NCBI GenBank assembly: GCA_035221665.1
Contig: CM069162.1
Span: 25,358,001 to 25,422,000, forward strand
Source: Okamejei kenojei
Taxonomy: Eukaryota
Reading direction: 5' to 3'
Length of the DNA: 64,000 nt
A model generated the notes under the pieces. It was given only the letters and a program-made list of their open reading frames with translations, did not search any database and was not told where the DNA came from. Positions 5,997-19,920 of the stretch are shown piece by piece; within the stretch, counting starts at the first letter, position 1, and the number at the start of each line of letters is the position of its first letter. The translations under genes and the position numbers were made by a program.

Positions 5997-6193
5997 GAAT
6001 GTCGAAAATGAAGGGAAAAATACGATGAATGAAAACCTATAACAAATATCTAAACGGTCATGAGATTATGGAAGGGTTGGGTCTTAGAGTCATAAAGCTA
6101 TGCAGCACGATAAAAGGCCCTTCGGCCCATTTAGTCCATGCCGACCAAGTTGGCATACAGGGCTGCAGTGAAGAAGTTACAATCCAGGTAGAT

Positions 6194-6248
6194 GGGGTGG
6201 GAGATTTGCAACCTTCACGTGGTCCGCCCTGTTTCAACAAATGCAATC
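6194..6248 (+). ncRNA. Minimal HDV-like (CPEB3-type) self-cleaving ribozyme, copy 1
   Basis: Nested double pseudoknot read directly: P1 GGGGUGG(6194-6200)/CCGCCCU(6224-6230) with G1-U wobble; P2 GAU(U)UGCA(6203-6210)/UGCAAUC(6242-6248); P3 ACC/GGU around L3 UUCACGU(6214-6220); G at 6231 for P1.1; tiny P4 stub; J4/2 CAAA with candidate catalytic C at 6238. Confidence 0.8.
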
Positions 6249-6338
6249 AACCCGGCGTGCTCAATCAAATAAGATCAAATAGAACAAGTTGTCCGACAAC
6301 TTTAGGCTATGCACGCCATACGCAAGAAGAAGAAGAAG
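6194..6338 (+). mobile_element. Ribozyme-headed short retroposon (SINE-like), copy 1
   Basis: Starts at ribozyme G1 and ends in a (GAA)n tail at 6324-6338. Imperfect direct repeat CAGGTAGAT (6185-6193) / CAGGTAAT (6340-6347). Homologous to 19626-19736. Confidence 0.8.
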
Positions 6339-6349
6339 GCAGGTAATGG

Positions 6350-7795
6350 CATGCATGAGCCAAATTAGTGTGCAAAGGAGAAGAGAACAGTGTGCAGAAT
6401 ACAGTGTTACAGCTAGAGAAATTGCAAATTTAAAAAAAATGCAGGAGCTACACAAGGTAGATTGGAAGATCAGGAATTAATTCCTAACTTATGATAGATA
6501 TAACTTATTCCTAACATGAAAGAATAGCCTGACAACAGCAGGCAAAAGGGGTCAAGGATAGAGCTATCACAACGCAGTCCTGAATCCACCAATCTTTCCA
6601 CCATTACGCACAAGAAGCCATTGCCTGCAGATGCCAAGACGTGTGTTCAGCTCTGGCTGAACAATTTCTAATCTTGTGATGTGGACTCGATAAGAAGAAA
6701 AATCAGGCAAAAAGCTGTTCTTGAATGCGGTGGTACATGCTTTCAACCTTTTGTATCTTCTGTCTGAAGGCAGAGAGAATAGGGAATGACTCCTCCTCGA
6801 TTATGTGAGTGCTCCTTGATTATGTTAGCTACTTTCCTGAGGCAGTGTAAAGTTAAGATGGAGTCCATGGGGTGGGGGAAAGAGGGGTGGACTAGGCTGC
6901 ATCCAGGACTCTGCAGTTTCTTGCGATCTTGCGCCAAGCCCTGATGCACCACACAGGATGCTTTCAATGGTGCATATGTAGAAAGTTGTGTCATTGGAGA
7001 TATGCCTGAATTTCCTTACCTTTTGAGCAAGTCGAGGCATTAGTGAGGTTTCTTGGACATAGTGGTTAATGTATTTGAGCCAGGACAAATTGTTAGTATT
7101 TACACCTCGGAACCTGAAGCTCATGACCATATCCACTTTAGCACCACTGAAAGAGACTGGGGCGTGTACCCCACCGTATCCTCCCACCGTTGGTGATCAG
7201 CTTCTTTGTTTTGCTGATGTTGAGGGGGAGGTTGTTGTCTGGATACCCTGCTCTTAATCTCTCAATCCCCTTCCCGTACCCAGTCTCACCATTGTTTGAG
7301 ACTTGGGCCCACTACAGAGTGTCATCTGCAAAACTTGTAGCTCAAGTTAGAGCAGAAGTTGGCCCACACCGTCGTGCGTAACTAGGGAGTGTAGCAAGGG
7401 TTTGAGAAAGCAGCTTTTACAGAGGTCCGGTGTTGAGAATAATTGTGGAAGATGTTTTGTCCCCAATTCTTATTGAGTTCGGACCCAACCCGGATTACAG
7501 GTACCGACAGTCAACAAATCACCCTCCTGATTACGGTCTATGGGTCAGAAAGTCGATCCAATTGCAGGAGGGGGTTCTGAGTCCGAAGTCCAGTTTGGAG
7601 ATGAGTTTGGTTAGAATTATGGTGTTGAAGGTGGAGCTATGGTCAATAAATATGAGTCTAATGTAGGTGACTTTGTTATCCAGATGTTCCAGAGATGAGT
7701 TTAGGGTCAGAGAGCTGGCATCTGCAATGGACCTGTTGCAGCAGACGGCAAATTGAGGCTGGAGTTAATGTGTGCCATTACCAGACTGTTCGGGA
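6350..7795 (-). mobile_element. Degenerate Rex1/Babar-type LINE (RT C-terminal half plus 3' UTR)
   Basis: Reverse strand has frameshifted YKFADD (~7320-7340), FRFRGVNTNNLSW, CLRKVANIIKEHSH and a PS.RRYKRLKA.TTAFKNSF terminus; many stops. Confidence 0.75.
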
Positions 7796-19530: not shown

Positions 19531-19625
19531 GTTCCATCTTCACCCATAGCACACACAGAAACCTTGGAATTCATTCGGACTAAAAAAAAGACACAAAGTG
19601 CAGGTGTAAGATAGTGGGTCTGGCT

Positions 19626-19736
19626 TCTTCTTTCGTGTGGCAACTTGTTCTATTTGATCTTCTGTTTGTGCACATCGAGTTGATTGCATTAGTCAAAACA
19701 GGGCGGACCACGTGAAAGTTGCAATCTTCCACCCCC
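19626..19736 (-). mobile_element. Ribozyme-headed short retroposon (SINE-like), copy 2
   Basis: Exact 13-bp TSD AGTGGGTCTGGCT at 19613-19625 and 19737-19749. GAA-type tail at the left end. Inserted into a Penelope-derived repeat. Confidence 0.85.
19682..19735 (-). ncRNA. Minimal HDV-like (CPEB3-type) self-cleaving ribozyme, copy 2
   Basis: Minus strand reads GGGGUGG AA GAUUGCA ACU UUCACGU GGU CCGCCCU G UUUUGA CUAA UGCAAUC: perfect 7-bp P2, 7-bp P1 with G1-U, P3 ACU/GGU, J4/2 CUAA. Confidence 0.82.
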
Positions 19737-19920
19737 AGTGGGTCTGGCTGCATCTCTGGAGAACATGGGTAGGCAACGTTTTGGGTTGGGACCCTTCTTC
19801 AGACTGAGTGTGTAGGAGGTAGAAAGTTGTAAGGAAGAGGCGGGGCAAAGCCTGGCAAGTGATAGGTGGATACTGGTAAAGAGGGTTTGACTGGCAGATG
19901 GTTGGAAAAAGAACAGAGAT

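Follow-up and report, generated by a model that had tools for sequence, protein, structure and literature searches.

Short non-coding retroelements that start at the +1 position of an HDV-like ribozyme cut have been described in trypanosomatids, in which NARTc, RIME and SIDER1 depend on an APE/RT LINE of the Ingi group (L1Tc/ingi clade) (PMC3185411, PMC4035085). In L1Tc, the transcription start of the Pr77 promoter was found to coincide with the cleavage site (PMC3185411). In Drosophila, the R2 SIDEs and R2/R1 hybrid SIDEs join a 5′ ribozyme to the 3′ end of a LINE and are mobilised in trans, and their ribozyme and tail may derive from different parents (PMC3414825). Regarding the LINE partners, Vingi is described as compact, with a single ORF encoding APE and then RT and without RNase H (PMC13708176). 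Regarding the ribozymes, HDV-like forms devoid of the P4 helix cleave in vitro and are known almost exclusively from gut phages (bioRxiv 2023.06.13.544163), and studies with R2 templates revealed that the fold itself increases insertion efficiency and that a C98A change is severely inhibitory (PMC11331408).

The locus analysed here comes from the skate Okamejei kenojei and lies in a stretch of 64,000 nucleotides of contig CM069162.1; this whole stretch is referred to as the window, and positions are numbered from its first letter. The focal copy is probably a dispersed member of an abundant 145-nt non-coding retroelement, the first base of which is G1 of a predicted minimal HDV-like ribozyme; proteins of a Vingi-type LINE likely copy this retroelement in trans. 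Since homologous heads are found on LINEs, together with a shared duplication of ~12 bp, a shared terminal motif, a (GAA)n tail and an end stem, the element is probably a ribozyme-headed, internally deleted LINE derivative, similar to NARTc/RIME and to R2 SIDEs, and not a Pol III SINE. The label SINE given to it in the original prediction was a loose one, considering that neither a tRNA head nor an A/B box was present (the boxes were searched as sequence patterns), and non-autonomous LINE derivative is the better term.

Anatomy, boundaries and size of the element family

Direct reading of the sequence placed the focal element at 6194-6338 of the forward strand (145 nt, with G1 at 6194), and its architecture was as originally described, with a GGGGUGG start at G1, a body of ~75 nt and a (GAA)n-type tail (Table 1). 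All pairs of the nested double pseudoknot (P1/P2/P3/P1.1, with the wobble at G1) are present both in the focal copy, in which one bulge occurs, and in the second copy found in the window; J1/2 of the focal head has 2 nt. The bulge is due to an extra T (U in RNA) in the 5′ strand of P2, which is private to the focal copy and absent from L002 (C32:25277540-25280685), a duplicate of the focal locus located 85 kb away with 98.2% identity over 3.1 kb. In L002, the element is devoid of the extra U, and its L3 has a G changed to A. The genome of the focal copy contained only this filled segmental duplicate and no empty paralogue of the site. For the focal copy taken alone, nothing pointed to a function.

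Table 1. Coordinates of the features of the focal copy and of related copies in the window; structural features are predictions.
Feature	Position	Strand	Remark
5′ target-site duplication copy	6185..6193	+	Target DNA; last base directly before G1
Predicted minimal HDV-like ribozyme head	6194..6248	+	54-nt-class fold without P4
P1, 7 bp	6194-6200/6224-6230	+	G1-U wobble; sequence parse
P2, 7 bp	6203-6210/6242-6248	+	One private bulged U; sequence parse
P3, 3 bp	6211-6213/6221-6223	+	Sequence parse
L3	6214-6220	+	UUCACGU; sequence parse
P1.1, one pair	C6216-G6231	+	Sequence parse
5-nt loop replacing P4	6233-6237	+	Sequence parse
Catalytic-position C	6238	+	First base of J4/2 CAAA
Body, 75 nt	6249-6323	+	Between head and tail
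End-to-end stem, 5′ arm	6254..6263	+	Starts 5 nt past ribozyme; body fold
Body internal hairpin	6286..6302	+	Fold prediction
End-to-end stem, 3′ arm	6308..6317	+	Body fold
Terminal motif and (GAA)n tail	6318..6338	+	22 nt identical to 3′ end of LINE family E1
(AAG)n tail	6324-6338	+	Sequence reading
3′ duplication remnant	6340..6344	+	CAGGT; 4 nt shorter than empty site predicts
Second ribozyme-headed non-autonomous family, decayed near-full-length copy	6548..6699	+	9-bp duplication at 6539-6547 and 6704-6712
Copy 2 (subfamily B)	19625..19735	-	22-nt body deletion

An empty site was represented by one contig from another organism (depth 3), which joins 6192 to 6344, running through T6193 on into the 3′ flank. 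This joint fixes the 5′ junction at G1 and implies that the 3′ duplicate of the focal copy is CAGGT. Therefore, the imperfect duplication CAGGTA(G)AT that had been pointed out is present, but its 3′ copy lost 4 nt and not one.

Only two copies were found in the window, the focal one and copy 2, which has the opposite orientation and the same design, as had been noticed, with 86% identity to the focal copy over 98 nt. The missing part of its body corresponds to a deletion that was also observed in 3/30 of its closest loci and in 0/100 positional loci (pattern count). The 12-bp duplication that bounds copy 2 (19737-19748 and 19613-19624) is perfect, and an additional G (19736) is placed between it and G1. 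In this way, the statement that both insertions share their 5′ end at G1 was confirmed for the focal junction but needs amendment for copy 2. No clean empty site was found for the latter, for which the joints had short sides within flanking repeats.

The high copy number suggested by these two insertions was verified in the assembly of 2.76 Gb, in which a head 28-mer had 6,130 exact matches and a tail 21-mer had 6,898, with 0 matches for the reversed control of each. In the first 26.3 Mb of contig C1, 32/100 tail matches adjoined one of 98 head matches, and the family was therefore estimated at about 19,000-21,000 copies.

The 5′ boundary was remarkably constant across this family. Seventy copies with an anchor at positions 10-37 were retrieved, and one was dropped for its duplicate flank. 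Among the remaining 69 unique copies, position +1 was G in 68, and the only common features upstream of G1 were a T at −1 (37/69) and, between −13 and −11, a weak T-A-A signal. The T at −1 might have been the first base of a longer element, but in 55/70 copies the −1 base is found again in the 3′ duplicate, which marks it as target DNA; this reading was therefore rejected. A duplication in register ending at G1 was detected in 70/88 testable copies, against 50/1,739 shuffled pairs, and the base following the target cut was G in 30/70 copies, a possible one-base microhomology. When loci were anchored on the tail only (n = 30), 22 aligned from position 1 and 4 from positions 2-3, the other 4 being 5′-truncated at positions 9, 17, 23 and 90, and none led into a LINE. 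Likewise, in four runs from two other organisms, 99, 115, 290 and 285 contigs exited the element at G1 into unrelated DNA. Dispersed, without ORFs, and carrying target duplications and a simple-repeat tail, these copies are TPRT-type insertions that start at G1. The proposal of ribozyme-defined 5′ ends is thus supported family-wide, as no sampled copy was homologous to others upstream of G1; however, a shared 5′ end alone does not prove cleavage, because the promoter start of L1Tc coincides with the cleavage site.

Among 91 positional copies, two subfamilies were recognised, A (39 copies; mean non-CpG divergence of 5.2%) and B (48 copies; 3.6%). They differ at 10 positions of the body and at 2 unpaired positions of the ribozyme, one in J1/2 and the other at the second base of J4/2; the 46 positions that are paired or belong to the core show no difference (p about 0.006 under a uniform distribution of differences). 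Of the differences between the focal copy and copy 2 that had been regarded as preserving the structure, CUAA versus C(G/A)AA in J4/2 is a genuine, subfamily-wide one. In contrast, the ACU of P3 in copy 2 was observed in 6/107 copies and in 2/29 of its closest relatives, being a private or recurrent change and not a subfamily trait. Because this P3 difference is private, the comparison of the two copies alone is weak evidence. In the oriented loci, L280:2-124 and L290:25-107 hold a form of the element that diverges more strongly, with P1 and L3 altered, and that is possibly an older subfamily.

The predicted ribozyme head and its probable partner LINEs

The head is predicted to be a minimal HDV-like ribozyme that would cut 5′ of G1. 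Just 5 nt separate U39 from the catalytic C, which leaves no P4 helix and thus fits the head to the minimal HDV-like class. The C at the catalytic position was retained in 43/48 3′-anchored copies and in the majority sequence of both subfamilies, and the L3 core is conserved. Most copies are decayed, as every pair and core base was intact in 9/48 3′-anchored copies, or 21/48 by a lenient rule. Covariance models recognised the head poorly: at the Rfam gathering cut-off there were 0 matches in the whole window, the CPEB3 model (RF00622) gave no match to the element's own head, and RF02682 gave a weak match spanning exactly 6194-6248 (13.4 bits versus a cut-off of 44, E 5.1). Moreover, the stability of the nested fold of the head alone was similar to that of shuffled sequences (z 0.39).

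Further evidence came from LINEs. A chance encounter with an RT fragment in locus L024 gave access to several LINE families. Of these, A, B, E1, E2, F and G were identified through searches with protein or with downstream DNA, independently of structure, in a survey of Vingi-like families. These LINEs, of about 2.9-3.3 kb, presented a single ORF with APE (PF03372/PF14529) followed by RT (PF00078) and without any RNase H match in Pfam, and homologues of ~1,000 aa, nearly all of them unnamed, carry the same APE/RT domains. This organisation fits Vingi-like LINEs, a name that reflects architecture and not a tree including named references. No Vingi-like protein piece was found within the window, and a search of solved structures retrieved only L1, R2 and group II RTs.

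Each of the six families starts with its own HDV-like head, which carries a P4 region, and these heads covary. With P1 fixed by the 5′ boundary of each family, pairing was observed in 42/42 cells over six distinct heads, comprising the element and five LINE heads (F was dropped, its P1 being identical to that of E1), through compensatory changes, and only 1/720 permutations of the 3′ strands was equally good. In a broader table of 12 heads, 179/192 cells were paired and 12/16 pairs had two-sided changes; this table is secondary evidence, as 4 heads were chosen by the CPEB3 model, partners had been fitted for P2, and the parsing of two rows was wrong. The pairings are kept in both subfamilies, in line with the original prediction, and covary across the LINE heads. 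In sequence, the closest LINE head was that of family G (22/26 nt), and no LINE carrying the exact head of the element was found: 30 of 34 variant matches were examined, and all of them were variants or fragments of short elements.

At the other end, the 3′ terminus of LINE E1 is the same 22 nt as in the focal copy, about 10 of which lie outside the tail, and the other LINE families end in variants of the same terminal motif plus a repeat tail. Family E1 (L241, L243, L247, L250, L252, L279) is very young, with 98-99% identity and about 2.9 kb; several of its copies are full-length, and those translated carry frameshifts or stops. In family E2, a 3′ end was detectable in 7/16 loci, and 6/7 had 11-13-bp duplications ending at G1 or ≤2 nt off, the remaining locus showing an 18-bp match in a GA-rich flank. 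In family G, a 3′ end was detected in 1/8 loci, with no duplication found. The element body had no match in the LINEs fetched beyond its last ~20 nt; therefore, a bipartite origin is inferred from the architecture, and the element would have arisen by internal deletion of a LINE now lost or unsampled.

The two ends may also be connected by base pairing. The body of the element folded with z −3.1 (2/200 shuffles were equally stable), and the predicted stem connects a stretch located 5 nt past the ribozyme with one that directly precedes the terminal motif, with one mismatch in subfamily B. In the LINEs, in which the 26-nt arms lie 3 kb apart and were mostly taken from different copies of a family, the 5′ and 3′ arms paired best with those of their own family in 5/6 families, and 4/720 permutations were equally good. 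Against 400 random windows, pairing as good as that of the arms was found in 24 (E1), 11 (E2), 6 (G) and 0 (A); family F failed this end-pairing test, and E1 was marginal. Such a predicted stem supports a two-ended origin and a role in recognition.

Other ribozyme-like repeats were also observed. A second ribozyme-headed family is represented by a copy 210 nt downstream of the focal one; over 160-171 nt, this copy is 77-79% identical to L434, L435, L437 and L441, and its tail resembles that of LINE family B. The head of this second family (L434-L437, L439, L441) likewise has about 54 nt and lacks P4, and P4 may be lost repeatedly among non-coding derivatives. At the G1 position, the copies seen carry a base that apparently derives from a target T. 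Another dispersed repeat containing UUCACGU, weakly head-like and without the P3 pairing, was noticed in the flanks of L219 and L230.

Proposed mechanism and rival readings

Cleavage, read-through transcription, recognition by a protein and mobilisation in trans are the steps that we infer for this element. Host RNA polymerase II would read through a copy, and the head would cut itself just before G1, releasing a unit-length RNA with a 5′-OH end that the pseudoknot could shield, by analogy with R2 templates (PMC11331408). The predicted end stem would then draw the 5′ and 3′ ends of the RNA together, allowing the LINE APE/RT protein to recognise this stem, the terminal motif and the (GAA)n tail. 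The protein would nick the target at T/AA and reverse transcribe up to G1, and the insertion would leave a duplication of 11-13 bp.

The main rival to this mechanism is an internal promoter at +1, in which the head serves mostly as a promoter or protective fold, the P4-less pseudoknot is slow or dead, and G1 is a transcription start inherited from the parent LINE instead of a cut. The coincidence of start and cleavage site in Pr77 (PMC3185411), the increased insertion of R2 due to the fold alone (PMC11331408), and the lack of P4 in the element, whereas the six LINE heads have it, are in favour of this reading. Even so, we regard it as unlikely, because both subfamilies and the LINE heads agree in the catalytic-position C and in every core base, HDV-like ribozymes without P4 are able to cleave in vitro (bioRxiv 2023.06.13.544163), and the C98A change strongly impairs R2 templates (PMC11331408).

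The remaining readings concern the partner and the nature of the element. RTE is the source of most known bipartite elements, some of which are predicted to have 5′ ribozymes (PMC5786205), and only about 10 nt plus the tail are common to the 3′ ends of the element and of the Vingi-like LINEs, so that the element might be mobilised by another (GAA)n-tailed clade such as RTE, its likeness to Vingi-like ends being convergent. This is quite improbable, since the duplication length, the terminal motif, the type of head and the geometry of the end stem all match the Vingi-like families, and 0/30 tail-anchored loci led into another LINE. RTE/Rex3 had been presumed as the partner at first from the tail of the element, an idea that was later dropped. 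An ordinary Pol III SINE, with a GC-rich head that fits the HDV descriptor by chance, would explain why the head scores below all Rfam cut-offs and why its nested fold alone is no stabler than shuffles. This reading is strongly disfavoured and hardly credible, as the element contains no tRNA gene and no A/B box, its 5′ boundary falls exactly at G1, and covarying homologous heads are placed at the 5′ ends of six LINE families. A ribozyme-headed LINE derivative thus remains the preferred reading.

CPEB3-like heads and comparison with described systems

The LINE heads also bear on the mammalian CPEB3 ribozyme, a single-copy intronic element in a brain gene. A search of the skate genome with RF00622 revealed 42 matches, 30 of which passed the cut-off (best 66.8 bits), and there were 0 in 14 control genomes. 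The best one, L413, shares 38 of the first 41 nt with the Rfam CPEB3 consensus, and both of its changes in P2 have a compensating partner. Four of the 30 passing heads run into an APE-type N-terminus by translation, 2 of them with tblastn support, and most of the others are short fragments. Heads above the Rfam CPEB3 cut-off belong to at least three families (L413-L433, L438, L440, L442). One of them, L428, is an element of ~95 nt in which almost nothing separates a CPEB3-like head from a terminal motif and tail of LINE type; it seems to be a further derivative with an internal deletion. The human genome retains a Vingi trace (PMC5753468), and the passages of PMC10919898 that were consulted give no origin for the CPEB3 ribozyme. 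A Vingi origin of this ribozyme is a lead that concerns the sister elements rather than the focal copy. A literature search retrieved no paper on the element family, on Vingi ribozymes, or on "Vingi" with "CPEB3"; Repbase, Dfam and patents were outside its scope.

The interest of these findings lies in the family and its partner LINEs, the focal copy being one of thousands. In this family, a predicted minimal HDV-like ribozyme is available in thousands of natural eukaryotic variants; the family also illustrates how a promoter-less element could reach SINE-like abundance. Vingi proteins are employed as tools for RNA gene writing (PMC13708176), and the ribozyme, end stem and terminal motif are candidates for the minimal cis signals of these proteins. 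The sister LINE heads, in turn, provide a testable origin for the mammalian CPEB3 ribozyme. A broader proposal, which might equally well prove right or wrong, is that Vingi LINEs are a vertebrate reservoir of HDV-like ribozymes, in which an active P4-less head enabled a parasite of 145 nt to rise to about 20,000 copies and to survive its parent. In this proposal, the 5′-3′ end stem would serve the clade as its signal for recognition in trans, and the CPEB3 ribozyme of mammals would derive from a Vingi 5′ end by domestication.

Compared with the CPEB3 ribozyme (RF00622), the skate heads present in alignments the same L3 loop, the single P1.1 pair and the same type of J4/2, whereas the element head has different P1, P2 and P3 and no P4. 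The drz-Mtgn-1 and theta ribozymes likewise lack P4 and have the catalytic C first in J4/2, but these are found almost only in gut phages beside tRNAs, whereas the element is headed by its ribozyme as a eukaryotic retroelement (bioRxiv 2023.06.13.544163). Bipartite derivatives of Vingi (from Vingi-1_EE) and of RTE are, like the element, two-ended, ORF-less and dependent on a single-ORF LINE (PMC5786205). The Drosophila SIDEs are rare and specific to rDNA (PMC3414825), in contrast to the element, which is dispersed, very abundant and probably associated with an APE-type partner. Finally, Pr77 has 77 nt with P4 and demonstrated activity (PMC3185411, PMC4035085), whereas the element head is a predicted ribozyme of 54 nt without P4; and, in contrast to NARTc, RIME and SIDER1, the skate element resides in a vertebrate, with about 20,000 copies of 145 nt that end in a (GAA)n tail.
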